NCBI GenBank assembly: GCA_965217115.1
Contig: OZ244239.1
Coordinates: 352,001-416,000 of the forward strand
Origin: Bdellovibrionales bacterium
GTDB lineage: Bacteria; Bdellovibrionota; Bdellovibrionia; Bdellovibrionales; CAYMLA01
Direction of reading: 5' to 3'
DNA length: 64,000 bases
A program made the position numbers and the translations under genes. Positions 1 to 60,856 of the stretch are shown here, in pieces; the first letter of the stretch is position 1, and each line of letters begins with the position of its first letter. The notes beneath the pieces are model-generated. The model saw only the letters and a list, made by a program, of their open reading frames with translations. It did no database searches and was not told the origin of the DNA.

Positions 1-469
1 TTTTGCTTGAAAGCTTCTGGGACTGGGAACAACGGGGGGCTTTGGCAAGGAACCGCCTTTAGGTGGAACTTTATCGTATAGCTCAGACATCGTTTGGCAG
101 CGGCGCTCGCTGAAGCGAGCATCGCGCCAAGCCGAACTCGCTTTACGATAGAGTTCCATCTAAAGGCTTTTGCTTGAAAGCTTCTGGGACTGGGAACAAC
201 GGGGCGCTTTGGCAAGGAACCGCCTCTAGATAGGACTCTATCGTATAGCTCAGACATTCGTTTGGGCAGCGGCGCTCGCTGAAGCGAGCATCGCGCCAAG
301 CCGAACTCGCTTTACGATAGAGTTCCATCTAAAGGCTTTTGCTTGAAAGCTTCTGGGACTGGGAGCAACGGGGGGCTTTGGGTAAGGGAACCGCCTTTAG
401 GTGGAACTCTATCGTATAGCTCAGACATCGTTTGGGTAGCGGTGCTCGCTTTAGCGAGCACCGCACCAA
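1..469. repeat. Tandem array of ~168 bp structured repeat (units 1-167, 168-336, 337-469 truncated); may continue upstream of the window
   Basis: TTTTGCTTGAAAGC recurs at 1, 168, 337 and GCTCAGACAT at 81, 248, 419. Full units contain a long hairpin (55-167, 222-336). Confidence 0.95.
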
Positions 470-506
470 AGATCGTTAGTTTCTTGAGTTAAATACGGGT
501 GGGTAA

Positions 507-875
507 TTAGTTAGTCTCTTTTAAAAATTGAAGCGCTTCTTGTTTTTTCTTAAGAAGGTATTTATTACAATTTTTTAATTGAGTGTTTCGTCTAATTTCA
601 GCTGGGCTTAGTTCACCAGCGAGAGCAGAAACGTCAGGAAAACCTAGGCTTTGTATTCTACAAAAGCTAACTCTATTTTTTAAAAGTACTTTTCTAAGTG
701 CTAACTGTCCTATATATAATTGTGCTATAATTTCGTCCTTAGACATTTTTGTAATTTCGTTTTTTATGTTATCAACATCATAGAATTCACTATTTACTCC
801 AGAAAAGAGTAATACTTCATCAGCAAATGCTGATACAGAACCTAAAAGGACTAAACTTAATAATATTTTTTTCAT
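507..875 (-). CDS. Small secreted hypothetical protein, AT-rich
   Basis: ATG at 875 with AAGGAG SD; signal peptide MKKILLSLVLLGSVSAFA. Confidence 0.8.
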   Translation of the reverse strand: MKKILLSLVLLGSVSAFADEVLLFSGVNSEFYDVDNIKNEITKMSKDEIIAQLYIGQLALRKVLLKNRVSFCRIQSLGFPDVSALAGELSPAEIRRNTQLKNCNKYLLKKKQEALQFLKETN

Positions 876-973
876 ATTTTTTCTCCTTATAAATAAGTTT
901 ATTGTGAGTTTTGCTTGCAACTTGTCTTACTAGACAAATAATAAAAAGAAATATTTGTCCTCGTTTTTAGAGC

Positions 974-1261
974 CTAGTGGTTTATGAGAGTGTTACACCT
1001 CATTGATTTCTCAATGATTAGTTCTGTTATTGCTAAATCAAACTCTGCCATTTTTTCTTGTGAAACTGATAGTCCAACAGCAAGATTTGCGATCGCATTT
1101 TTATTTAGAGATAATGCAGCTCTCATTTCACTTAGTCGATTAGTACAAAATTCTAGTCTTGTTTTCTCTGAAGCCAGTTTTCCAGCTCTGCTCTGATTTA
1201 ATGCAAAAACCGAATTACTTAACATTAAGATGCTGATCGTTCCAAGTAATAATTTTTTCAT
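974..1261 (-). CDS. Small secreted hypothetical protein, AT-rich
   Basis: GGAG SD; signal peptide MKKLLLGTISILMLSNSVFA; two Cys. Confidence 0.8.
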   Translation of the reverse strand: MKKLLLGTISILMLSNSVFALNQSRAGKLASEKTRLEFCTNRLSEMRAALSLNKNAIANLAVGLSVSQEKMAEFDLAITELIIEKSMRCNTLINH

Positions 1262-1479
1262 AATATTCTCCGTTTTTTGAGTAATGACTCTTAACCTTAG
1301 ATGAATAGGAACTATAGTCGAAAAAAGTATACATCTCTAGAGCTATAGTCATTTGTGCAAAACTTACAAAAAAATGTGGCCTGTCACTTTTTAATGGAAA
1401 TTACACCCCCTAGGGCATCTTTTTTATTAAAATGAGCCTTAAGCTGCTTTGAGGAACATATCCAGATACTCACGGATTT

Positions 1480-1679
1480 CATCTAAAGGCTTTTGCTTGA
1501 AAACTTAGGGGGCGCTTTGGCCAATGGAACCGCCTTTAGCTGGAACTCTATCGTATAGCTCAGACATTCGTTTGGCAGCGCCGCTCGCTTCAGCGAGCAG
1601 CGCACCAAGCCGAACTCGCTTTACGATAAAGTCCCATCTAAAGGCTTTTACTTGAAAGCTTAGGGACTGTGAACAACGG
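1480..1679. repeat. Continuation of the ~168 bp repeat array (end of split unit, one full unit, start of next)
   Basis: CATCTAAAGGCTTTTGCTTGA resumes at 1480; full hairpin 1532-1645 with GCTCAGACAT at 1558. Confidence 0.95.
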
Positions 1680-1758
1680 AGTTTAGGGGGGAAACAACGG
1701 AGCTCAACGGGAACAACGGGGCGGCGTTGTTCACAGTTAAGTGCACTTTTAGATAAGA

Positions 1759-1871
1759 GTGGTCCAAAGGGGGTTTGTCTTCAAATGAGTTCGGATTGGT
1801 GCGATGCTCGTGAAGCGAGCGGCGCTGCCAAACGCATGTTTGAATTTGAAGATAAACCCCCTTTGGACCAC
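1759..1871. repeat. Inverted copy of the structured element with different 28-bp arms
   Basis: Arms GTGGTCCAAAGGGGGTTTGTCTTCAAAT / ATTTGAAGATAAACCCCCTTTGGACCAC enclose the reverse complement of the array core. Confidence 0.9.
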
Positions 1872-1891
1872 GGCTTACCTACCCAAAGCAA

Positions 1892-2943: not shown

Positions 2944-3828
2944 TTGAAGTTCAAATATCTTATCGCTATTATTTTAGGTGCAGCCGTCGCTGACATCACT
3001 ATCTTAAACGTCCATGATCTCATTCTTCCTAAAAAAACTCTTTCAATTAAATCAAAGCAGAATCAAAGCACTCGCCTTCAACTCTCTGAGTATAACTCTA
3101 TAGTCAGCAGAAATATTCTTAGTGCCGATGGATTTATGCCCAAGGCCCTTGTCTCTGACTCAGAAGGAGGCCAAAACGGCAAGTTTCTCTCCAGTGCAAA
3201 ACCCGTTCTGTCTCAACTCCCAATAAAGCTTATCGGCACGATTGTCCACGCCAACCCTGAACGCTCCGTAGCCAGTGTCGAACTTAAAAGCAAAAATAGA
3301 ATCTCCCCTTTCTCCAATAACGACGTCATTGATAATATTGCCCGTGTTAAAAAAATCACCCGGCGACAACTCATATTTCAGAACCTCAATAACAATCGTT
3401 TGGAATATATTGAAATGGTCATCAATGCTAAAATATCCTATGAACTTACAAAGAAATCCTCTGACAAAAAAAGCTCCTTCGTTGATGGCATCTCAAGAAA
3501 CGGCAATAAGTTTTCTATTAAACGCTCTACTCTGGAGAAACATCTTAAAAACCTGCCTAAACTATTACAAGAAGCACGGGCCGTTCCTAACCGCGACCCT
3601 CTCACTGGAGAAATTAACGGTTTTCGTATCTTAGATATTTTGCCTGGTAGCCTCTTTGAGTCCCTTGGCGTCAAGAGGCTTGATGTTATCAAGGGAGTTA
3701 ACGGAGAAAATATCGACAACCCCTCCAAGGCTATGGAAGCGTTTAATCGACTCAAAGGCTCAAACAATATAAAAATAACAATTAATCGAAGTGGCAAAAA
3801 CGAAGAGTATGATTACTCTGTCGAATAA
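2944..3828 (+). CDS. gspC: Type II secretion protein C (HR + PDZ domain)
   Basis: N-terminal TM, KLIGTIV motif, C-terminal PDZ (GFRI..I.PGSLF..LG); first gene of gsp operon; start uncertain. Confidence 0.9.
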   Translation: MKFKYLIAIILGAAVADITILNVHDLILPKKTLSIKSKQNQSTRLQLSEYNSIVSRNILSADGFMPKALVSDSEGGQNGKFLSSAKPVLSQLPIKLIGTIVHANPERSVASVELKSKNRISPFSNNDVIDNIARVKKITRRQLIFQNLNNNRLEYIEMVINAKISYELTKKSSDKKSSFVDGISRNGNKFSIKRSTLEKHLKNLPKLLQEARAVPNRDPLTGEINGFRILDILPGSLFESLGVKRLDVIKGVNGENIDNPSKAMEAFNRLKGSNNIKITINRSGKNEEYDYSVE

Positions 3829-3840
3829 ACGAGGTTTTAA

Positions 3841-6207
3841 ATGGTAAGACGACAAAACAAGACAACGGCATCACACTGTAAGAATTTGCATTGTAAGAGT
3901 TTGCACTGTAAAAAATTACACTGTAAAAATTCACCCTGCGGGAAATCACTGTCCCCCACTCACAGGCTTTGTCTCCTGTTGGGGTTTCTTGTTCTCCCAT
4001 TCTTTCTCTCCACTCACGATTCCCATGCTCAACGGGGGAAAAATCGTTTTAACAGTCTCTCAAGCAACTCTGCATCCAGTTCCAAAACAGGGAAGGGCAT
4101 TGTTGCTCAACCTCTAAGCCCAGAGGCTAAGAAGAAATTTGCTAAAGCTCAACCAGAAGACATCACCTCGAAAAATTTTCCACAAACCATTGAAAGTTTC
4201 GATTATCAGAACGCTGAAATCACAGATTTAATCAAGGCCATGGGAGAGCTCACTGGGAAGAATTTTATTATTGATGGCAAGGTTCGCGGCAAAGTCACCA
4301 TCATTGCGCCCTCAAAAATAACTGTGGCAGAAGCCTATAAAGCCTTTCTCTCAGCACTGGCTATTAACGGCTTCACCGTTGTTCCCAGTGGACCTTTCTT
4401 GAAAGTTCGTCAATCAAGAGCCGACGCCAACCGCGACAGTATTGAAACTTACTCAGGAGATTATTTCCCTAACTCAGACCAACTTATCACCTACATCATG
4501 CAGCTTAAACATATCTCTGCCGCACAGGTTAGAAAAGATATTCGTATCCTCAACTCCAAAGATGGAGAGATCTCGGCCTACGAACCGACCAATTCATTAA
4601 TCATCACTGACTACGGTTCAAACGTGGAACGAGCTGTAAAGATACTCTCTCGCCTCGACACGCCTGGGTTTCAAGATCAAATGGAAGTCATGCCCGTCAA
4701 ACACGCCAAAGCCAAAGACATCGCCGAGCTCATTGATCAGATTGTTTCTAAAGGGACTGGGAAGAAATCTCGCTCCTCTCGCAGAGGTTCTTTCTCCTCT
4801 TCACGCCTTCGAAATAACCAGGCTAAATCAGTGAACCAACCTCGGTTTAACGTCATCCCCGATGGCCGAACCAACTCTCTTATTGTTGTTGGCAACAATT
4901 CAGGAATCGGCCGCATTCGCAAGCTTGTTAAAAAATTAGACTTCCGCCTAAATCCAGAGGATGCTGGTGGAGTTTATGTCTACTACGTCAAACATGGCTT
5001 GGCCGTAGAAATTGAAAAAACCCTACAAGGTATCACCAAAGACACCAAGAAAAAGAAAACAAGTTCTCTGCTCAGGGCGAGATCATTTTCTCCTCCCAGC
5101 CCAACAGAGCAAATATTTGGTGGAGATGTTAGAATTAAAGCCGACAAACAAACCAACAGTCTTTTAGTCACATCGAGCAAACAAGACTACCAGGCTGTTC
5201 TCAATCTTTTACAAAAAATTGATATCCCAAAGGATCAAGTCTTTGTGGAAGCCATCATTATGGAAATGAGTCTCGATAACAGCAGATCATGGGGAACAGG
5301 GTTTTATAAATTCAACAAAGAAGGGACAGGGAAAGTTGGTTTCAACACCATTAAAGACTTTGTCAGTCTTCTTAGCCCTACTAGTAATACCCAAGGAGCT
5401 GTTCTCGGATTTGGTTCAGGGGATATCATCGAAGTTGCTGGGACGTCCATTAGCTCTACTATTGGTTTAGTTAATTTCTTAAAATCTAATGCAAACACCA
5501 ACGTTTTATCTACGCCACAAATAATGACACGGGATAACGAAGAAGGTGTGATAGAAGTGGGAGACAAGGTTCCCATCGCAAGTGAAACCACTACCGCAAA
5601 CAACGGAAGCACAACTAACAGTGTTAAGTTTGAAGATGCCACTATTAAGCTCAAAATAAAACCTTTTATTAGCCCCAATAGGACGAAGGTGCGCTTAGAG
5701 GTGGACCAGAGAGTTCAACAACTCTCCAATCGTCAACCACCTGCGGGAGTCACGACTGTGTTTCTTCAAGCAATTTCCAAACGATCTATAAAAACACAAA
5801 TTGAAGTGAACAACAAAGACACGGCAGTTCTGGGTGGTTTGATGAGTGACAGGATCACCGAAAGCGTCTCTAAAGTTCCCGTATTGGGGGATATCCCCAT
5901 TCTCGGATGGCTTTTCAAATCGAATGTAAAAACAACAACAAAAGTTAATCTCTTGGTTTTTATAACTCCTACTATTATTCAAAATTCAGATGATAATTCA
6001 AAACTCCTAGGTGATAAACTCAATCAACGCATTGATTTTGTTAAATCCACCGGTGGCAAAGACTCTTTTGGAAAATACATTGACCGCCTTCCTCGACAAG
6101 CGACTCTTAATGACAATGACTCTGATGGGGAAGATGACGACGAGAATGACTCTGATAAGGAAGATAACGACGAGAATGATAGCGAAGAAGTGATTGAGGA
6201 TGAATAA
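3841..6207 (+). CDS. gspD: Type II secretion secretin
   Basis: N0 domain (GKNFIID..VRGKVTI), TNSL repeats, secretin motif KVPVLGDIPILGWLF. Confidence 0.97.
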   Translation: MVRRQNKTTASHCKNLHCKSLHCKKLHCKNSPCGKSLSPTHRLCLLLGFLVLPFFLSTHDSHAQRGKNRFNSLSSNSASSSKTGKGIVAQPLSPEAKKKFAKAQPEDITSKNFPQTIESFDYQNAEITDLIKAMGELTGKNFIIDGKVRGKVTIIAPSKITVAEAYKAFLSALAINGFTVVPSGPFLKVRQSRADANRDSIETYSGDYFPNSDQLITYIMQLKHISAAQVRKDIRILNSKDGEISAYEPTNSLIITDYGSNVERAVKILSRLDTPGFQDQMEVMPVKHAKAKDIAELIDQIVSKGTGKKSRSSRRGSFSSSRLRNNQAKSVNQPRFNVIPDGRTNSLIVVGNNSGIGRIRKLVKKLDFRLNPEDAGGVYVYYVKHGLAVEIEKTLQGITKDTKKKKTSSLLRARSFSPPSPTEQIFGGDVRIKADKQTNSLLVTSSKQDYQAVLNLLQKIDIPKDQVFVEAIIMEMSLDNSRSWGTGFYKFNKEGTGKVGFNTIKDFVSLLSPTSNTQGAVLGFGSGDIIEVAGTSISSTIGLVNFLKSNANTNVLSTPQIMTRDNEEGVIEVGDKVPIASETTTANNGSTTNSVKFEDATIKLKIKPFISPNRTKVRLEVDQRVQQLSNRQPPAGVTTVFLQAISKRSIKTQIEVNNKDTAVLGGLMSDRITESVSKVPVLGDIPILGWLFKSNVKTTTKVNLLVFITPTIIQNSDDNSKLLGDKLNQRIDFVKSTGGKDSFGKYIDRLPRQATLNDNDSDGEDDDENDSDKEDNDENDSEEVIEDE

Positions 6208-6239
6208 CACGGCGGGTGCAATAGGGAGCTTATTGTAGT

Positions 6240-7934
6240 ATGACCAATACAAATATTGATCTTCTTTTATATAAAAACACCAAAATGTCTGAAGACCAGG
6301 TGAGGAGCCTTCTGGATTCACCCGTCATTGGGACGACAGATAGTATTGGACAGAAGCTCAGTCAAAAAAAATACGGCACCGTGGATGAAATCATCATTGA
6401 TCTTTGTAAAGAGTTGGGCGTGGATTTTATTAAAGATATTCCTGTTAATGATATTCCTGTGGATCTCATTCGTCATATCCCTATCAACTATGCAAAAACC
6501 CATGAGATCATGCCCATTCGTGAAGAGAGCAACCAGCTGCTCGTCTTAACCAGCAATCCCATCAACACCCGATCCATGGATGATCTTCGGGTTATCTTTG
6601 GAAAAAAAGTCGTTCCCGTCATTAGCACCAGTGAGCGTGTGCAAGATGCCATTAACCGTGTTTATGAGAAAAGCACCGCCGCGCTTGAGGGATTAGACAC
6701 GATCGAAGGGGAAGACTACGATCTCGACGATCCCATTGTTGATCTTCTCGATGCGGCCGATGACGATGCTCCTGTTATCAAATTGGTAAATACACTTTTA
6801 TTCCGTGGCGTTAAAGAAAAATGCTCTGATATTCACATCGAGCCCTACGAAAAAGATATCTCCGTGCGTTTCCGCATTGACGGACTCCTCTACGAAATTT
6901 TTAAGCCGCCTAAGAGACTTCAAAATGCCATAACCTCGCGTATCAAGGTGATGGGCAATCTCAACATCGCTGAAAAACGTCTTCCCCAAGATGGCCGTAT
7001 TCCATTAAAGGTCGGAGGTAAAGACATTGATATTCGTTTGAACACCATCCCCACTTCCCATGGTGAAAGAATTGTTATGCGTCTACAGGACAGATCCAAC
7101 GTCATTCTTGAACTTGACCAATTAGGATTTTCCAAAAGATCCCTCACGATCCTTGAAGACAATCTCTTAACTAAAACTTACGGTATCATCCTTGTTACGG
7201 GACCGACAGGAAGTGGTAAATCCACCACTCTCTACGCTTGTTTACAAAAAATCAATGCTCCCAATCGTAACATTATCACCATCGAAAATCCTGTCGAACA
7301 AAACATACATGGTATCGGACAAATTCAAACTAATTCCAAAATTGGACTGACTTTTGCCTCAGGATTGCGAGCCATCTTACGTCAAGATCCCGATATTGTT
7401 ATGATAGGGGAAATTCGTGATTTAGAAACCGCTGAAATTTCTATCAACGCATCTTTAACGGGTCATCTCGTTCTCTCAACCATTCACACCAACGATGCCT
7501 CTGGGGTGTTTCCCCGTTTGATTGATATGGGTTGTGAACCATTCTTGATAGCCACTTCTATTATGGGAGTTTTAGCACAGAGATTAATCCGAGTTCTCTG
7601 CCCCCACTGTAAAGTTCCCTATGAACCCACAGATATTGAACTCGCCAGTATTGACATGACACGTCAGCAAGCCAAAAAAGGCAATCCTTGCAAACCTATG
7701 GGTTGTCACGAATGCAATCAAAAAGGTTACATCGGACGAACCAACGTTCAAGAATTACTCGTTGTCACCGATGAAGTTCGCTCTATGATAATGCAACGAG
7801 TGGACTCTGGACAAATTAAAGCCAAGGCGATCGAGCAAGGCATGCTCACTGTTCGCGACCACGGTGTTGAGAAGGTCCTCAATGGCGTGACATCTATTGA
7901 AGAAATACTCAGTAGCACACAGGTAGATAATTAA
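6240..7934 (+). CDS. gspE: Type II secretion ATPase
   Basis: SDIHIEP, RLPQDGR, Walker A GPTGSGKS, LRQDPD, CPHC/CHEC zinc motif. Confidence 0.97.
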   Translation: MTNTNIDLLLYKNTKMSEDQVRSLLDSPVIGTTDSIGQKLSQKKYGTVDEIIIDLCKELGVDFIKDIPVNDIPVDLIRHIPINYAKTHEIMPIREESNQLLVLTSNPINTRSMDDLRVIFGKKVVPVISTSERVQDAINRVYEKSTAALEGLDTIEGEDYDLDDPIVDLLDAADDDAPVIKLVNTLLFRGVKEKCSDIHIEPYEKDISVRFRIDGLLYEIFKPPKRLQNAITSRIKVMGNLNIAEKRLPQDGRIPLKVGGKDIDIRLNTIPTSHGERIVMRLQDRSNVILELDQLGFSKRSLTILEDNLLTKTYGIILVTGPTGSGKSTTLYACLQKINAPNRNIITIENPVEQNIHGIGQIQTNSKIGLTFASGLRAILRQDPDIVMIGEIRDLETAEISINASLTGHLVLSTIHTNDASGVFPRLIDMGCEPFLIATSIMGVLAQRLIRVLCPHCKVPYEPTDIELASIDMTRQQAKKGNPCKPMGCHECNQKGYIGRTNVQELLVVTDEVRSMIMQRVDSGQIKAKAIEQGMLTVRDHGVEKVLNGVTSIEEILSSTQVDN

Positions 7935-9154
7935 TGCCTATCTTTGAGTACAAAGGCCTCAACAAAAAAGGGGCTCATGTTCGCGGTTCCATTGACGCTG
8001 AAAATTCACGAGCCGCACGTAGCAAATTAAAAGCTAAAGATATTTATGTCACTCAACTCAAAGACAAAAAGAAAGATCAAAATAAAAAGGATAAAACCCA
8101 TAAAACTCATAGCCAAAAAGTCTCCGTAGAAGATCTCTCAATGATGACTCGCCAACTAGCCACTCTGATAAGGGCAAATATTCCGCTGGTAGATTCTCTA
8201 ACAGCCGTCTCCGAACAAGTTGAAGAACCTGTTCTAAAAGAAGCTATTTCTGATATAAAAAACATGATCAATGAAGGTACGAGCTTCCATAAAGCTCTGG
8301 GCAAGTACCCTAAAATTTTTAATACAATTTACATCTCCATGTGTGAAGCTGGTGAAATGTCAGGAACCCTTGATTCCATACTCATTCGTTTAGCAGAATT
8401 CACTGAAGCCCAAGCTGCTTTAAAAAGTAAAATTAAATCTGCCATGCTCTATCCCGCTATTATGATGTTCGTAACAATGGGGCTTCTCGGTTTTCTCTTT
8501 GTTTATCTCATTCCAAAAATGGTTGTCGTTTTTGAATCTGCTCCAGAGTTAGTCTTGCCTTGGTATACAAAAATGATCATCGACACCAGTGATTTTATGG
8601 TCGCTTACTGGTATGTTTTACTTATCAGTCTCGTTGGAGTCTATTTTATATTTAACAATTGGAAAAAAACACCCAGTGGACGCGTTCAATGGGATCAAAT
8701 CTCGCTGACACTACCTGTGTTCGGAGCACTCACGCGCATAGTTGCAGTCAGTCGTTTCACTAGAACTTTATCCACACTCCTCGAAGGTGGTGTCGATATG
8801 TTAACCTCGATGAATATTGTGCGTAATGTGGTCAACAATGAAATCATTGCCAAGGCCATAGATGAGGCTCGCGATAATATCAGCGAAGGGGAATCCGTCG
8901 CTGGACCTTTAAAAAAATCAGGACAATTCCCTCCCCTTGTTATACACATGATTAATATCGGTGAAAAAACAGGAGAGCTAGAAAACATGCTCCTACAAAT
9001 CAGTGATGCCTATGACTTTCAAGTGAAAAACAAAGTTGACGGTATCACCAGTATTCTTGAGCCCGTTATGATTGTCATCATGGGTGGAGTGGTTGGCATT
9101 ATTGTTCTCGCGATTATGGTGCCTATGTTTGAAATGACCAATCTTGCTGGGTAG
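7934..9154 (+). CDS. gspF: Type II secretion inner-membrane platform protein
   Basis: TRQLATL, GE.SG.L, AMLYP, GEKTGELE motifs. Confidence 0.97.
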   Translation: MPIFEYKGLNKKGAHVRGSIDAENSRAARSKLKAKDIYVTQLKDKKKDQNKKDKTHKTHSQKVSVEDLSMMTRQLATLIRANIPLVDSLTAVSEQVEEPVLKEAISDIKNMINEGTSFHKALGKYPKIFNTIYISMCEAGEMSGTLDSILIRLAEFTEAQAALKSKIKSAMLYPAIMMFVTMGLLGFLFVYLIPKMVVVFESAPELVLPWYTKMIIDTSDFMVAYWYVLLISLVGVYFIFNNWKKTPSGRVQWDQISLTLPVFGALTRIVAVSRFTRTLSTLLEGGVDMLTSMNIVRNVVNNEIIAKAIDEARDNISEGESVAGPLKKSGQFPPLVIHMINIGEKTGELENMLLQISDAYDFQVKNKVDGITSILEPVMIVIMGGVVGIIVLAIMVPMFEMTNLAG

Positions 9155-16602: not shown

Positions 16603-18246
16603 TTAATCTAGTGCAATCCCTTTGATAAACGACTTAGGAATTTGTTTTAAAAAATCCTTCACTGTTTTCACACCTTTGCAAGAAAACCTCAAATCCATCG
16701 TTGGGATATTAACAGTCATTTTATCTAATTCTCGACTAAATTTTGCAGGATAGCCTATCAATGCAGAAGAGCTTTCATCCCCTTCACTTTCAACGACAAC
16801 CCCACGGATTTTTTCTGTGTTCTCCTGCAAGTCATCCCGCTTTCCCTTACGCAAGAGGCAGCCTACATTGGCTTTCTCGTAACTTTCATATGCATCTAAA
16901 CTACTTATCACACGTCCATCTTTTTCCATGAAAGTCATCTTATCAAGAGAAGATAGTTTAAAATCAAGACTTATAAGGGCATAAATATCTGCACTCAGGT
17001 GAGCGCCTCCCATAAATGGGTTCACGTACTGCTTCTTAACCTTTTTACACTCAAATTTTAGAAGATCACAACCATAATTGTAATCAAACCATAGATCAGA
17101 ATTCATTTTCCTGTTCTTAGTTAAGTGTTCCAAAGAAGCATTGCCTTTTAAAACATTTAAATCTTCTTCTTCCTCAACTCTCTCTTCTATGTCTTCAATA
17201 TCAATATCGCGAACATTCGTTTCGTCCATTATCTGCAAGTAAATCGTCTCTCCAGATGGCCTTATAAATGTTTCAAAAGGCTGGTTCTTTCCAAAAGCAG
17301 AACCTTCATTTAAATTCAGAGATCCAAATCTAAAAGGCTCCCTTGTCGTCCATTGGCGATAGTAGCCGTCATTTTCTAGAACCTTGTTTTCAGTCTTCTC
17401 AATAGGGATGTTAAAATCCTTTGCTGTGTTCTGTAGCGCTTTACCTTCAACGGTGTTTATATTTAGAATACGATGACTCAAACCACGAATAGACAAATCA
17501 TCCATCAGTCTGACAACTCGTATGGCACGATCGAGTTGACGACTTAGTCCGTAGTCATTAACACGGGCTATTCTATGAAGAAGAGATTCCTCAAAACCGT
17601 ACAATCGCCAATCTTTACCAACCTTAACCATGTAACCCGGAATTCTTCTTCCTTTCTCATAAATAACTACAGTGTGGATTGTTTCCATCTTCAAAGATAA
17701 CATCAACGTCAACTCCGTCATTGCCTCTTTATTATAGATACCGTCATACAAAAGTTTTTTCATGAATTTATTTAGGTAACCAAAGCGTCCATCAATACTG
17801 TTAAATCTATCTTCATGCCTTATTCTTTCACCTCTAAACAGTTCCTGATAAATTAATCTGTTCAAATTCTGCAAAGAACCTGCCGTTTTTGCATTTGCCT
17901 CCAAACGACTTAATCGATCTCTCACTCTTTGTCCATTTGGCGAATTATCCTGACTAGACACAATTCTTTCACGCAAAAAACTATACAGATCTTTACTAGA
18001 AACTTTATTTTTAGTCAGTTGCTCAGCAACTTTGTGCTCACTGGCTATAAACCCACCTTGATTTAGATCTATAACTGCATTGACCGGAGAACTTTGTGAT
18101 CCATTATTACCCTTCGGAGAATGGCTCACAGAACTTCCCTTCGAACACCCAAACATCACTAAAGGGAGAAACACAAAAATAATCAAAAAATGAATCATGA
18201 AAAACACAACTGGCTGTCTCTTATTTGTTCTTTTATGGGCACTCAT
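16603..18246 (-). CDS. Hypothetical lipoprotein
   Basis: 547-aa ORF, GAGG SD, hydrophobic leader ending MFGC, Ser/Gly linker. Confidence 0.75.
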   Translation of the reverse strand: MSAHKRTNKRQPVVFFMIHFLIIFVFLPLVMFGCSKGSSVSHSPKGNNGSQSSPVNAVIDLNQGGFIASEHKVAEQLTKNKVSSKDLYSFLRERIVSSQDNSPNGQRVRDRLSRLEANAKTAGSLQNLNRLIYQELFRGERIRHEDRFNSIDGRFGYLNKFMKKLLYDGIYNKEAMTELTLMLSLKMETIHTVVIYEKGRRIPGYMVKVGKDWRLYGFEESLLHRIARVNDYGLSRQLDRAIRVVRLMDDLSIRGLSHRILNINTVEGKALQNTAKDFNIPIEKTENKVLENDGYYRQWTTREPFRFGSLNLNEGSAFGKNQPFETFIRPSGETIYLQIMDETNVRDIDIEDIEERVEEEEDLNVLKGNASLEHLTKNRKMNSDLWFDYNYGCDLLKFECKKVKKQYVNPFMGGAHLSADIYALISLDFKLSSLDKMTFMEKDGRVISSLDAYESYEKANVGCLLRKGKRDDLQENTEKIRGVVVESEGDESSSALIGYPAKFSRELDKMTVNIPTMDLRFSCKGVKTVKDFLKQIPKSFIKGIALD

Positions 18247-18708
18247 AATTTAACCTCTTGTTTTATAGTTTTAAAAAGCTTCTACTCTCAATATATGATA
18301 ATTCAATTTTTAGGCCATAGTATCTACCTGTATTCAGGTACTTACGAGCCATTAAACTCCACGGCAAGGGCCTTTAGACGGTAATTGTCCTTCACTGTCA
18401 AAAAGAATGACTCTTTATTAGTTCTTTCCCTTTTTTGTGGGAGGGCTAAATCACAGGCATCTCCTGCTTATGGAAGGTTGAGTTCAGACGACATGTTACT
18501 ACGTACTTTTTTGCAAACTTCCCATTTACGCTTTTCACGAAAAAATATGACTTCCACCTGCCAACCCATCATCTTTAAATGCTTTGTCCGAAGTTGATAT
18601 TGATCGTGATAATTTCCTAACTCGTTATCAAAGACAATTTTAAAGATTCTTTATGACAAACATATGACAAAAAAAAATAGTGGAGCCAGTTTTTTTCTGA
18701 TGAGCTGG

Positions 18709-18858
18709 TTTTTTTCTAGAGTTCTCCCAAAAGAATCCAGCCCTTTTCTTGCTCAAACATTCGTTTGTCACCTTCCATTGCAGGGAAATGCAATGGAAGT
18801 CGCCAAGCCAAACTCGCCGAAAAGAACTGGACTCTTTTGGGAGAACCCTAGAAAAAAA
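18709..18858. repeat. Dispersed copy of the structured element with unrelated arms and inner hairpin
   Basis: GCTCAAACATTCGTTTG (18751) ... GCCAAGCCAAACTCGC (to 18817) inside 40-bp inverted arms. Confidence 0.88.
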
Positions 18859-19031
18859 GGCCCTATTCAATCAATGGGTCAATGGACCTCTTTCTATGAC
18901 TGGCCTCCATGTATAACAACGCTGTTATCCATGGATAGTTTTAGAAAGAGAGCCCTCAAGATGGGTCTCTTGGGAATAGTTCCACTATTTATCACAAAGA
19001 ATCACTTTAAAAGACGAGCTTTCTCGAACCC

Positions 19032-19060
19032 AAAAAAAAAGGCGACTCAATCGTCGCCTT
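19032..19060 (-). terminator. Rho-independent terminator
   Basis: GGCGAC/GTCGCC stem plus A9 tract, downstream of 19112-19531. Confidence 0.8.
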
Positions 19061-19111
19061 CTCACCATCCCCTAGCTTTGTCGGCTGAGGGCTAATCATT
19101 TATCTAGTGTT

Positions 19112-19531
19112 TTAGTTTGTTGGCTGAAACATCTCACTCAAAAACATCTCACTGAAATCACAAGAAACAACACTTAACCCCTGGCTATCAGAAATTCTAC
19201 CTATTTTATCCATAACATGAACAAGTACATTGTTTGCATCGTCATCATAAAAACTAAAATTTAGAATATTATTGATTGCTGCTATGATTTTAATATCTCG
19301 AATAACGGTAATGCCCCCAAGCTCTATCAATGCTCTGACGACCCCAGATCCTGTATTGCGAGTATTCGTCCAATCTTTAAGATTAAAATGTGCATTGAAG
19401 ACCAAACCATCAAAGTTTTCAAATCCAGTGCAAGAAACTGCTTTGAAATAAAAATTTTCATTCATCTCTGCCTCAGGCTCTGCTGTTGCCTGTATAGACA
19501 AGCTTGCTAAAATAATTAGTATTAATTTCAT
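19112..19531 (-). CDS. Small secreted hypothetical protein, AT-rich
   Basis: AGGAG SD; signal peptide MKLIILILASLSIQATA; two Cys. Confidence 0.8.
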   Translation of the reverse strand: MKLILIILASLSIQATAEPEAEMNENFYFKAVSCTGFENFDGLVFNAHFNLKDWTNTRNTGSGVVRALIELGGITVIRDIKIIAAINNILNFSFYDDDANNVLVHVMDKIGRISDSQGLSVVSCDFSEMFLSEMFQPTN

Positions 19532-19856
19532 TTCTATCTCCTACCTAGAAGGTTAAATTTACTCCATTTAATTTATCTGAATGATTATAACAAAAAAAAG
19601 GAGACCTGAAAGATTTTATTACAGAACTCAACCATTATATGTAAAAAATACATTTTCTTGAAGAATGGTTTATTTATTCGATTCGTTTATAATTCCTGAT
19701 TGAAGGCTTGTGGAATATATAATCTGGGTCTCATAATGGCTCCTATTTGATGAGGTTTTTAGCAAACAAAATCAAATCAGGTTTTTTACATTATGAGGCC
19801 CACTCTAGGTTTTTAACTCAGTGCTTTCCCACAAATATTACCTAGAGCCCTCTTTA

Positions 19857-21680
19857 TTATTTTACTAGATTTTCCAGATTTTCCCGCACTTTTCCTAATT
19901 CTTGCTCCAGCTCCATCCACTTTTCCTCAGATTTCTCCAATAATATCTGAGACTCAGACAGGTCATCTAATATCTCTCTATGACCCCCCGCCATCGCCCT
20001 CTTATTTAATTCTTTTATCTGATGGTTCAGATGCTCCATTTCCCTGTTAGTCATCTTTAACTCTTTTTCTAATTCTCGCCGTCTCTTCTCCCATATCTTT
20101 TTCGACTCTTTGTAATTAAATTTTTTATCCATGGGATGACTCTCCCTTTCAGCCGTCATCTCTGCCTCTTCTGATGAAAGGGATGACAATAAACCCATAG
20201 CTCCCTTCTGCACGCTCCACACATATTCATCATAGTTCCCAGGGTAAAGACCTACTTCCCCGTCTCGTATCTCTAAAATTTTTTTCGCAACTCTCTTAAT
20301 AAAACTGCGGTCATGACTCACCACAACCACTGTGCCTTTATAAGCTTGTAGAGCCTGAGTCAAAGCCTCCACCGTGTAAAAATCTAAATGATTTGTCGGT
20401 TCATCGAGTAATAGAACTGGAGTTTTCTGTGCCAGTATTTGACCCAGAGCCACACGCGCTTTTTCTCCTCCAGACAGTAATACTATTTTTTTCTTCACAT
20501 CATCGCCAGAAAACATAAGAGCCCCTGCCAGATCTTTTAAGTCCTGTAACGTCATGTCAGTCGCGGCATAAGTCCCCAGAGACTCCAGTACAGTGTCTTC
20601 ACCTAATAAATATTCACTCACATGTTGTGCAAAGTATCCTACTTTCATTCCCTCACTTATTTTCACGTCGCCCTTTAATGGTTTTAATAACTGGGCCAGG
20701 GACTTTAACAATGTGGATTTACCTGCACCATTGAAACCCACAACTCCAATATGATCTCCTTTTTGAATTTCAAGGGAGACGTTTGAGAGGACCACATTCT
20801 GATCGTAACCGAGGTCTGTACTGTTTAATTTTATAAGGATTCGACCAAAATGAGGTGGCTCTGGTAAATTGATTCTCGCCTTAACTGATAAGGGCCTTAC
20901 CTCTACTTTTTGCAATTTACCCATTTGCTTTAACCGCGATTGCACTTGTTTTGCTTTTGTCGCCTTCGCTCCAAATTTAGCCGCAAAATCCTGAATCTGC
21001 TTGCGCTTTGCCTGAACCTTAAGTGCTTTTTTTTCTATGAGCTCTCTCAACTGAGATTTTTGCTCAAAGTAATCATCAATATGTCCGCTAAATTTACAAA
21101 CATCCCCCTGTTCAATTTCTAAAATATGATCTGTCGTTCTTTTTAAAAATTCACGGTCGTGGGAGATGAGCAAAAATGCACCTTGAAAATCAATTAAGAA
21201 ACTCTCAAGGATTATTAATGTTTCCAAATCCAAATAGTTTGTCGGTTCATCCAAAAGCATCACATTAGGTTCCTGACCAATTAACGCCAGCAACTTGCAA
21301 CGCATACGATAACCGCCACTGAGACTTTGCACGGGTGAAGAAAACATCTCTTCACTTAATCCCAAGCCCTTACCTATTTTTTTCAAATTCCAAACAGGAA
21401 GAGAGCTACCCTGAACAATATAATCTTCCACTGTCTCCCTTGGTCCCCAGTTAACCTCTTGGGCTAAATAACCCAGGCGCAGTTGACGGGATTGGACCAC
21501 CTGTCCGACATCCAACTCTTCTTCACCAATAAGAATTTTAAATAAAGTTGTTTTTCCTGCTCCATTGGGGCCGATGACACCAATGTGCTCCCCTTCATTG
21601 ACAGAAAATCTAATATCTTCAAACAAATATCTTCCACCATAAGCTTTGCTTCCATTTTGCAGTTGAATCAAATTAGACAT
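19857..21680 (-). CDS. ABC-F family ATPase (Uup/YheS-like)
   Basis: Two ABC domains (GPNGAGKT, GFNGAGKS, LSGG, LLDEPTN), no TM, C-terminal coiled coil; start set at MSNL. Confidence 0.95.
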   Translation of the reverse strand: MSNLIQLQNGSKAYGGRYLFEDIRFSVNEGEHIGVIGPNGAGKTTLFKILIGEEELDVGQVVQSRQLRLGYLAQEVNWGPRETVEDYIVQGSSLPVWNLKKIGKGLGLSEEMFSSPVQSLSGGYRMRCKLLALIGQEPNVMLLDEPTNYLDLETLIILESFLIDFQGAFLLISHDREFLKRTTDHILEIEQGDVCKFSGHIDDYFEQKSQLRELIEKKALKVQAKRKQIQDFAAKFGAKATKAKQVQSRLKQMGKLQKVEVRPLSVKARINLPEPPHFGRILIKLNSTDLGYDQNVVLSNVSLEIQKGDHIGVVGFNGAGKSTLLKSLAQLLKPLKGDVKISEGMKVGYFAQHVSEYLLGEDTVLESLGTYAATDMTLQDLKDLAGALMFSGDDVKKKIVLLSGGEKARVALGQILAQKTPVLLLDEPTNHLDFYTVEALTQALQAYKGTVVVVSHDRSFIKRVAKKILEIRDGEVGLYPGNYDEYVWSVQKGAMGLLSSLSSEEAEMTAERESHPMDKKFNYKESKKIWEKRRRELEKELKMTNREMEHLNHQIKELNKRAMAGGHREILDDLSESQILLEKSEEKWMELEQELGKVRENLENLVK

Positions 21681-60548: not shown

Positions 60549-60708
60549 GCCCTTTCTTTTTTTTTCTTTTCTTTTTTTTCCTTTTTTTTTCTTTCTTTCT
60601 TTTTCTTTTTTTCCTTTCTTTCTTTTTTTTCCTTTCCTTACTTACTTACTTTTTCCTTTTTCCCTTTTCCCTTTTCCCTTTTTTTTCCTTTCCCCTTTTT
60701 TTTCTCCT
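60549..60708. repeat. Polypyrimidine low-complexity tract
   Basis: About 160 nt almost entirely C/T, including (CTTA)3 and (TTTTCCC)n. Confidence 0.9.
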
Positions 60709-60721
60709 CACACCCCCAAAA

Positions 60722-60856
60722 AACCCGTCGCCTGGGGGGAGGGGCTCTTTACTTTCACGCGCAGTTCTTTCGGTGCGATGCTCGCAAAGCGAGCGCCGCA
60801 GCCGCAAGCATGTCTGAGCATGAAAGCAAAGAGCCCCTCCCCCCAGCCGACAGGTT
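60722..60856. repeat. Dispersed copy of the structured element with G/C-rich arms
   Basis: GGTGCGATGCTCGCAAAGCGAGCGCCGC...CATGTCTGAGC enclosed by CTGGGGGGAGGGGCTCTTT / AAAGAGCCCCTCCCCCCAG. Confidence 0.88.

Follow-up and report, generated by a model that had tools for sequence, protein, structure and literature searches.

A lineage-restricted family of structure-constrained palindromic repeats in the genome of a Bdellovibrionales bacterium

Repetitive extragenic palindromic (REP) units are sequences of some tens of nucleotides that have a conserved 5' tetranucleotide and are paired as inverted doublets. Enterobacterial repetitive intergenic consensus elements (ERIC, also intergenic repeat units, IRU) and Correia elements (Correia repeat enclosed elements, CREE, or neisserial miniature insertion sequences, NEMIS) are imperfect intergenic palindromes of 100–160 nt that are co-transcribed with their neighbours and occur as deletion and mosaic variants; we know of no dedicated transposase for either of them. 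Here we describe a family of intergenic hairpins found in a 64,000-nt stretch of a Bdellovibrionales genome (contig OZ244239.1, positions 352,001 to 416,000, or G000:C1:352001-416000; hereafter the window), the genome being a single contig of 2,170,531 bp with 39.6% G+C. We read the element as a REP/ERIC/Correia-class intergenic palindromic repeat of unusual design. Full-text literature searches turned up no account of repeats of this kind from Bdellovibrio-like bacteria, and the REPIN/RAYT papers that they listed do not mention Bdellovibrio. The explanation that we tentatively favor is that the family consists of lineage-restricted, non-autonomous, structure-constrained palindromic repeats of the same class as REPs and their doublets (REPINs), ERIC and Correia elements, that it is orphaned in this genome, and that it would be recognized by an enzyme of the single-tyrosine (Y1) type.

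The habits of these elements are those of the REP class. Like the repeats of REP/REPIN systems with their REP-associated tyrosine transposases (RAYTs), they are extragenic palindromes present in tens to hundreds of copies, lie at gene 3' ends and between convergent genes, occur singly or in clusters, keep their hairpins through paired changes and, in one relative, flank Y1 genes. They differ from REP/REPIN systems in that (i) the element is three to five times longer; (ii) its unit of 115–165 nt has one asymmetric core instead of two inverted short REPs; (iii) its arms are nearly unique to each locus, whereas REPs stay close to a master sequence; and (iv) the enzyme is absent here and in other copy-rich genomes, while in the relative G020 the Y1 gene is present in seven diverged copies rather than one. 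Many hairpin-forming extragenic copies were found, but not a cognate Y1 gene of the same genome flanked by them. The likeness to ERIC and Correia elements is one of class only, drawn from their general properties and not from a comparison of sequences: those elements are conserved in sequence over their full length, whereas conservation here is confined to the loop and inner hairpin; and where Correia elements carry a short target duplication and conserved terminal inverted repeats (TIRs), the larger of our two subfamilies, family B, has neither a TIR nor a target-site duplication (TSD).

Within the window, the pattern GAGTTYG-N(20-50)-ATGTYTGA gave five matches where 0.05 were expected, and none of 100 shuffled versions reached five. 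Read on one strand, full units have the order arm, GAGTTCG, inner hairpin, CGNATGTCTGA, arm'. The original prediction had listed seven copies sharing this core, and the motif search and a covariance model together showed all seven places to be real, the copy at position 393 being truncated; the model accounts for this truncated copy and for the divergent one at 60731-60847. Genome-wide, the strict motif has 96 matches, three of which prove on reading to enclose an unrelated inner sequence; a looser search with curation yielded 97 copies, 57 belonging to family B and 40 to family A. The covariance model, R1, was built from 30 family-B representatives (alignment A1). This check, which the original prediction had proposed, added seven copies, among them the one at 60731-60847 in the window, and since 150 of 1041 candidates were scored in the genome run, the total is at least 104 copies in 2.17 Mb. 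Family A has a 63-nt core between arms of about 44 bp that contain an internal loop, and its copies are dispersed, with a median pairwise identity of 95%. The cores of family B measure 57–60 nt and occupy about 16 loci, with arms that fall into 18 clusters. The elements form tandem arrays of up to five or six copies, head-to-head pairs and single copies, as well as mosaics in which they are combined with other repeat modules.

The family is conserved as a fold, and the loop and inner hairpin are constrained in a way that the stems are not. Applied to A1, RNAalifold predicted 47 pairs, 30 of which have changes on both sides; 97.7% of the cells are paired, compared with 81.2% in shuffled alignments and 40–46% when the partners are slid against each other. 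In the outer stem all 28 of 28 pairs show double changes, and none of 500 shuffles reached any of the observed measures. The original prediction had argued for selection on a fold, which these results support together with the covariation of the adjoining helix across genomes; its view that the arms come in four unrelated sequences did not hold, as the arms of family B can be aligned in every column and the differences between them are paired changes. On the strand reading GAG, the unit (115–165 nt) consists of an outer stem of 28–90 bp that changes freely in sequence while remaining paired, an invariant asymmetric loop (5'-GAGTT opposite 5'-NN-TGTYYGA), a covarying helix, P2, and an inner hairpin. 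Beyond the arms lies a further outer helix, P0 (5' ...TTTCAAAG / 3' CTTTGCC(C)AAA), in which ...AGRTTTCAAAG on the 5' side is paired to CTTTGCC(C)AAA on the 3' side, with CC(C) bulged out. Upstream is a C-rich leader (CCCCGYTGTYCCCAGTC); arms, P0 and leader together make up a unit of about 165 nt, matching the 169-nt tandem period, and in some arrays the leader is expanded to 12-nt tandem repeats or CT-rich tracts (L003 3217-3540; L013 1444-1686).

The inner part is nearly invariant within this genome and varies with compensation across genomes. Helix P2, beside the loop, exists in at least eight compensating versions: CGG.TTGG/CCAA.CG; CGGATCGG/CCGAACG; CGGATCGCC/GGCGACCG; CCTTCAAG/CTTGAGG; CTGATGGG/CCCATTCAG; CCGATGAG/CTCAGTCG; CGGCTTTGC/GCAAAACG; and TTCTGAGG/CCTCAGAG. 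Only 5'-GAGTT and 3'-TGTYYGA are invariant across genomes. Since the two bases preceding TGTYYGA vary (AA, GA, CA, AC, TA, GT), the loop spans some 5 x 9 nt, and pairing of its UU is inconsistent. The shortest form, at a relative's locus (L044), has a 35-nt core with a 6-bp tetraloop hairpin. Inner loops also occur as mutual reverse complements (CTTCAG/CTGAAG, CAAAG/CTTTG).

In a kink-turn, a bulge of three nucleotides separates a canonical stem from tandem sheared G.A pairs, and the original prediction had likened the GA/GA juxtaposition at the base of the outer stem to such a motif. That juxtaposition is present and lies in the conserved asymmetric loop. However, the would-be bulge comprises 4–7 nt rather than three in a loop of these dimensions, the bases opposite UU vary freely, and none of five element-bearing genomes has a gene of the L7Ae family. 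As the original prediction had stated, no Rfam family is recognizable: Rfam 15 gave no match at the gathering threshold over the 64-kb window, and at E-values up to 10 the first 2000 positions gave no ribozyme or other family, only weak matches to microRNA precursors and the like, far below threshold. That the element is a kink-turn-containing or self-cleaving RNA is thus hardly credible. Searches of phage and plasmid collections likewise returned no match to the element.

The strand that folds is the one reading GAGTT...TGTYYGA. In the outer stems of 56 family-B copies, 65 cells are G.T and 11 are A.C on this strand, corresponding to 28 and 8 distinct events, an asymmetry to which strand-biased mutation, for example on the non-template strand of transcription, could contribute. 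Folding energies agree: when one element per arm type of this genome was folded along with 32 elements of seven other genomes (51 in all), the GAG strand came out more stable 44 times under RNA parameters and 43 times under DNA parameters, the mean difference in its favor being -6.0 and -2.3 kcal/mol, respectively. In the relative G142, positions adjacent to the core are conserved as G.T, G.G and G.T, which the opposite strand would present as A.C, C.C and A.C. The original prediction, in which wobbles in different copies pointed to different strands, is therefore revised. With respect to replication, the origin lies near 1.26 Mb and the terminus near 0.17 Mb as judged by GC skew. Of the 40 family-A copies, 31 have GAG on the leading strand (27 of 36 loci, p = 0.004), as do 24 of 64 family-B copies (13 of 37 loci, p = 0.10), and 59% of genes of at least 200 aa are on the leading strand. 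The family-A bias may belong to the mobile element in which this subfamily is embedded (see below) and not to the hairpin, and we give it little weight.

The family is restricted to one order. R1 matched 7 of 60 relatives and, when 150 other genomes of the order were searched, 19 of them (20 of 151 with this one), representing 9 of its 13 families; it matched none of 127 genomes from 20 other families in a sample of the phylum. Copy numbers range from one to more than 24 per genome (lower bounds in large runs), this genome having the most. In G142, the 20 copies examined share a centre of about 95 nt, while their arms of 19–89 bp (at least 40 bp in 19 of 20) are almost wholly different from copy to copy and contain only 1–4 mismatches, three of them at conserved positions. 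About seven near-identical copies in G007 lie inside a longer palindrome, their centre in one orientation in four cases and in the other in three; this genome also has a variant with a different loop and the same inner hairpin. In G086 (L143, G086:C8:108327-108484), the apex of one element is taken up, in place of the inner hairpin, by a second element that is small, complete and inverted. This nested copy and the two orientations of the G007 centres indicate rearrangement or mobility of the module at the level of DNA. Within genus g11, the four copies compared sit at different loci. We also considered that the arms might be an inverted duplication of the target, which is excluded by the occurrence of the same arms in the 40 family-A copies and in the roughly seven copies of G007.

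Four full hairpin units and one truncated unit lie within the first 2000 positions of the window (Table 1). The tandem array to which the copy at 53-169 belongs has five units of 169 nt and begins outside the window. Read on the plus strand, the truncated copy has kept its left arm and the part of the core that reaches to the inner hairpin and has lost the 3' arm and the 3' half of the core. The right end motif of the copy at 1757-1873 immediately precedes the stop codon (1892-1894) of a convergent gene (1892-2641), and a 120-nt low-complexity tract of T and C runs only (60600-60720) lies directly upstream of the copy at 60731-60847. Neither of the two small open reading frames (ORFs) between the copies matches a Pfam family. 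Separately, four plus-strand ORFs at 2944-9154 (294, 788, 564 and 406 aa) have translations that resemble type II secretion genes (secretin, ATPase, platform protein).

Table 1. Repeat elements and associated features in the window
Feature	Window position	Strand	Remarks
Family-B copy	53..169	-	28-bp arms around 57-nt core (83-139)
Family-B copy	220..338	-	Core 250-308; arm type as in copy 53-169
Truncated family-B copy	393..478	-	Partial model match 27-91 at genome 352417-352478 (window 417-478)
Two small orphan ORFs, 137 and 95 aa	507..1261	-	Signal-peptide-like starts; flanked by element copies
Family-B copy	1530..1647	-	Core 1560-1617; upstream of the small-ORF pair
C-rich slippery leader (CCCCGTTGTTCCC copies on the minus strand) and P0 strand	1646..1745	-	Between two copies
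Family-B copy, different arm sequence	1757..1873	+	Core 1787-1843
Family-A copy (359-bp miniature element)	18645..19003	-	Hairpin ~18709-18861, core 18753-18815
Divergent family-B copy	60731..60847	+	5' motif CAGTT, not GAGTT; R1 model 87.3 bits

On a crude map of 2088 ORFs covering 89% of the genome, every copy is intergenic. The gene upstream of family-B elements is co-oriented with the GAG strand in 33 of 45 intergenic regions, and only three of these regions lie between divergent genes. For family A, 5 of 36 regions are between divergent genes and the gene on the 3' side is convergent in 25 of 36. A convergent gene of at least 150 aa lies no more than 60 nt from 18 family-B copies; in about 13 of these the stop codon falls inside the conserved right end TTTGCC(C)AAA(A)TCAA or at most 10 nt past it, and in four or five the convergent reading frame enters the element. 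In G142, where most copies are single and lie between ordinary genes, 10 of 20 copies have their end at most 40 nt from a convergent gene's stop codon, and the upstream gene is co-oriented in 13 of 18 assignable copies (manual count). Patterns of sigma-70-type promoters or intrinsic terminators do not coincide with the elements, nor is the stem followed by a U-tract.

This arrangement bears on the main rival to our interpretation, a possible but doubtful one, which holds that the element is an RNA module of a portable kind, transcribed with the 3' end of the upstream gene and active in the transcript. It would serve in 3'-end protection, duplex processing or Rho-type termination aided by the C-rich leader, with the loop binding a protein, and the copies in miniature elements or beside transposases would be insulators. 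The co-orientation of upstream genes in both genomes is what such a module would show, although copies of the same array are not independent, so that the orientation counts are overstated. The wobbles also favor the GAG strand, the energy gap is larger with RNA parameters, the leader upstream of the hairpin is rich in C and poor in G, the elements are found in unrelated mobile contexts, and old copies stay paired in place in genomes that have no Y1 gene. On the other hand, the elements themselves offer no promoter or intrinsic-terminator signal, perfect stems of 40–89 bp are unusual among functional RNAs, and arrays of five or six tandem copies are hard to square with such a function. The reverse-complement inner loops are a signature of events at the DNA level, and an element present in just 20 of 151 genomes of the order is not what we would expect of an RNA module.

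The copies form the seams of small islets of accessory genes, whose limit is the stop codon of a housekeeping gene in convergent orientation. In a survey of boundary and islet genes, 70 proteins were scanned, 26 of which had no family at all. The boundary genes encode purF-like, cobalamin adenosyltransferase, fused methylmalonyl-CoA mutase, aconitase, RlmL, LipB, RlmN, PfkB kinase, YceG, cyclophilin, LpxC, SIS-CBS and PolA proteins; between the copies lie orphan and accessory genes, including BspA-type leucine-rich repeat (LRR), ankyrin, FG-GAP, Mrr, LysR and TehB-like genes and a RES-Xre pair. This pair, an Xre-type antitoxin with a RES-domain toxin, is inside one repeat-bounded islet (L004 7619-8792), and the Mrr-type restriction endonuclease is in another (L009 512-1411). 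A 388-aa protein with a Topo VI-A/Spo11 N-terminal domain and a Toprim domain ends 7 nt from a hairpin (L004 10196-11359).

Behind the SIS-CBS gene, an array contains a 280-nt unit four times, with 77–96% identity; besides the hairpin and its leader, the unit takes in 87 nt from the 3' end of the SIS-CBS gene, the next 258–300 nt are common to three units, and the array units hold paralogous genes. This pattern is a tandem duplication of a gene plus an element. At genome position 529640 (L004 5604-5732), a hybrid hairpin combines the 5' arm of one type with the 3' arm of another, both from the same locus, which indicates recombination within the shared core.

The islets invite comparison with integron cassettes. 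As in attC sites, the fold of one strand defines the element, conserved positions are unpaired, and the elements stand behind genes; in attC, however, the outer ends are conserved and the centre is variable, whereas the reverse is true here, and the arrays look like duplications. We consider it very unlikely that the element is a folded-strand recombination site of the attC or Xer kind at which a tyrosine recombinase adds cassettes behind housekeeping genes. Such a site could explain why copy-bounded islets (LRR, ankyrin, FG-GAP, RES-Xre, Mrr, LysR) end at housekeeping stop codons, why the unit of one array takes in part of a neighbouring gene, why structure is conserved and not sequence, and how the hybrid hairpin came to exist. 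Yet the genome has only three tyrosine recombinase genes (PF00589; two of Xer size and one of phage type), none of them near an array, and no integron-type integrase was seen, no integron-specific model having been run. Moreover, arms are specific to arrays, so that cassettes are not exchanged between them, the paralogous genes in array units point to tandem duplication, and the G142 copies are mostly single, between ordinary genes.

When the 40 family-A copies were aligned with their flanks, conservation was found to extend far past the hairpin, with three alternative left modules. The longest form, of about 520 bp, has GGTTCTTTGTGATAAATAGTGG at its start and the inverted counterpart, ...CCACTATTGTTTGTCATAAAGAATC, at its end, and AGATTATT on either side is a TSD matching at 8 of 8 positions. 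ATAATAGA brackets a second copy (8 of 8), and a tandem pair is enclosed by AAGTTTAA and AAATTTAA (7 of 8). The copy at 18645-19003 in the window is bounded by TTTAAAGT / TTTAAAAT, an 8-bp TSD matching at 7 of 8 positions; thus the hairpin that the original prediction had reported at 18709 is genuine, with the correction that it is part of a TIR-bounded miniature inverted-repeat transposable element (MITE) of 359 bp. Contigs assembled from four runs of one sample (window 17600-20000) break at 18645 and 19001, and none bridges the two, so that neither empty sites nor variants are seen in them. Shorter family-A copies are internal-deletion derivatives, and two other copies with the left-end type c have no clear TSD. 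The left end is confined to this genome among the 151 genomes of the order, and neither an autonomous parent of the MITE nor any multi-copy insertion sequence was found in this genome. A 2.3-kb dispersed duplication (genome 12621-14894 and 1589449-1591725, 95.7% identity) contains a family-A copy and also encodes a 535-aa protein with a proprotein-convertase P-domain.

TIRs with a TSD, as in MITEs of the DDE type, characterize family A only. Neither was seen in 24 solo or boundary copies of family B, whose ends are CGYTGTTCCCAG... and ...TTTGCC(C)AAA(A)TCAA. The mosaics resemble the bacterial interspersed mosaic elements (BIMEs) of E. coli in that repeats and short modules are joined in variable order, tandem and inverted; they differ in that the modules are unrelated in sequence and one mosaic is bounded by TIRs with an 8-bp TSD.

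That family A travels as the cargo of a MITE raises the question of whether the hairpin is only a passenger, a palindrome that has no sequence-specific partner, is spread by other vehicles, and has its arms kept complementary by template switching or mismatch repair within the hairpin. Besides the TIRs and 8-bp TSD of family A, the arrays, which are tandem duplications of gene plus element, and the hybrid hairpin, which shows recombination between copies, are compatible with this idea, and the arms in G142, with 1–4 mismatches in 40–89 bp, are more perfect than selection usually yields. Self-correction, however, would erase the asymmetric core, which is invariant across nine families while the adjoining P2 covaries, and strand-asymmetric wobbles are not predicted unless the mutation process is strand-biased. 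We therefore regard a mere passenger as improbable.

To return to the interpretation that we favor, the invariant loop and inner hairpin would be what a trans-acting protein recognizes on a folded single strand. The mobilizing enzyme may have been an IS200/RAYT-type Y1 transposase of the HUH class acting on single-stranded DNA (ssDNA), which would be the active form of the element. A Y1 enzyme seems the likeliest because Y1 genes adjoin the hairpins of one relative, G020; no other enzyme was seen beside them, and Y1 HUH transposases act on just this sort of substrate. The proteins encoded around the elements of four relatives (G005, G007, G011 and G020) were clustered for recurrent neighbours, and one suggestive family emerged, a 181-aa protein next to two hairpins of G020; the other recurrent neighbours were only paralogue families of housekeeping type (sigma-54 activators, flagellins and sigma factors). 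The 181-aa protein matches PF01797 at 29.5 and 28.9 bits (cut-off 23), and its HUH motif and catalytic tyrosine align with those of the ISDra2 transposase (2XM3), its nearest solved relative. G020 has seven such Y1 paralogues with 80–83% protein identity, their homology being limited to the gene itself. Four of the seven have an R1 match within 300 nt (five hairpins in all, upstream or downstream and in either orientation), a fifth is accompanied by a partial hairpin remnant (blastn) and a sixth by a plain palindrome. Conversely, five of the eight hairpins found in G020 adjoin Y1 genes, an adjacency that chance cannot explain. Homologues of these Y1 proteins were limited to the same metagenome-assembled genome and sequences of at most 57% identity in the genome collection, and to two loci at 55–61% in the metagenome collection.

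The check on genes that co-occur with the family, suggested with the original prediction, thus brought up Y1 HUH genes beside hairpins in G020 only. In 16 other genomes (23 loci, filters off), no R1 hairpin stands alongside a Y1 gene, the only matches in that scan being plain palindromes beside an IS200-like gene of G007 and one G020 gene. The G007 gene (G007:C62, L092 1-900) is a classical IS200-like Y1 gene of 157 aa (PF01797, 97 bits) flanked by three perfect 34-nt palindromes, a separate and textbook-looking arrangement of the REP/RAYT type, and a Y1 gene in G031 is flanked by a nested hairpin of different sequence. Elements of the IS200/IS605 group and their derivatives that lack an ORF resemble the present family in that Y1 enzymes recognize their single-strand hairpins, short conserved single-stranded motifs lie alongside, and TIR and TSD are lacking. 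They differ in having two small subterminal hairpins and a fixed short target, in place of one large nested hairpin; the distance and orientation of Y1 genes are variable here, and no fixed flanking target word was seen at family-B ends, though the right end abuts convergent stop codons.

The original prediction had found no transposase, RAYT or reverse transcriptase in the window. For Y1 and RAYT genes this absence extends to the whole genome, whereas a reverse transcriptase gene does exist elsewhere, far from the copies (genome 1868639-1869175, minus strand, an ORF of 319 aa with PF00078 at 48 bits, 27 kb from the nearest copy). A similar gene in G142 lies 2.1 kb from a hairpin. Reverse transcriptase was considered as a partner and rejected: it is present in this genome, G142 and G007 and was not found in G089 or G008.

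Because this genome has no Y1 gene, its roughly 104 copies would be orphans. Their present spread may be due to local tandem duplication, to recombination between cores and, for family A, to carriage as cargo of the TIR/TSD-bounded MITE, and they would persist at gene 3' ends where a hairpin is tolerated or useful in transcripts. For REPINs, genomes that have lost their RAYT are described as keeping repeat populations that are smaller and in decay (bioRxiv 10.1101/2021.07.10.451892). Repeats persist in enzyme-less genomes in both cases, and RAYT loss fits the missing enzyme here.

Several observations weigh against the Y1 explanation, beginning with a population size and about 97% paired arms that do not fit the decay described for REPINs. 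No PF01797 match was found in this genome, where the best tblastn hit with 26 diverse Y1 proteins had an E-value of 0.007; nor was PF01797 found in G008, G142 (at least 24 copies) or G089 (14 copies), and the G020-type protein was not found in any of five copy-rich genomes. In G139, G121 and G148, Y1 genes are present, the nearest being at least 5.2 kb from a hairpin. Of 60 relatives, 33 have Y1 homologues, but only four of the seven that bear the element do, which is no enrichment. The adjacency in G020 could equally arise if Y1 genes insert beside hairpins or use them as insulators. A 115–165-nt element with a single asymmetric core is unlike the classical REP doublet, the replication-strand bias is inconsistent between families A and B, and the TIRs and 8-bp TSD of family A are a DDE-type signature that needs no hairpin.

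In a more novel reading, the loop and inner hairpin would be the cis-site of an unrecognized, Y1-independent machinery specific to this predatory order, either a new ssDNA recombination or replication factor or a new protein-binding or self-processing RNA, that keeps the long hairpins perfectly paired in place and nucleates accessory genes exactly at housekeeping stop codons. We consider this unlikely. As the restriction to one order, the folded strand, the fold, the REP-like habits and the constraint on the loop and inner hairpin are solid, we file the family with the palindromic intergenic repeats; as the Y1 enzyme is missing here and in several other carriers, we hold the Y1 mechanism itself with reserve.

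Most bacterial palindromic repeats are conserved as sequences, whereas this family is conserved as a fold around an invariant loop of about 12 bases in nine families of an order. Stems that have diverged almost completely and yet remain paired are a rare natural record of covariation for a repeat element. The family makes it possible to test (i) what recognizes such repeats where there is no transposase; and (ii) whether it is selection or self-correction that keeps long palindromes perfect. Because the copies in this genome mark where accessory genes have accumulated behind housekeeping genes, the family is of practical use as a marker of plasticity in the genomes of Bdellovibrio-like bacteria.

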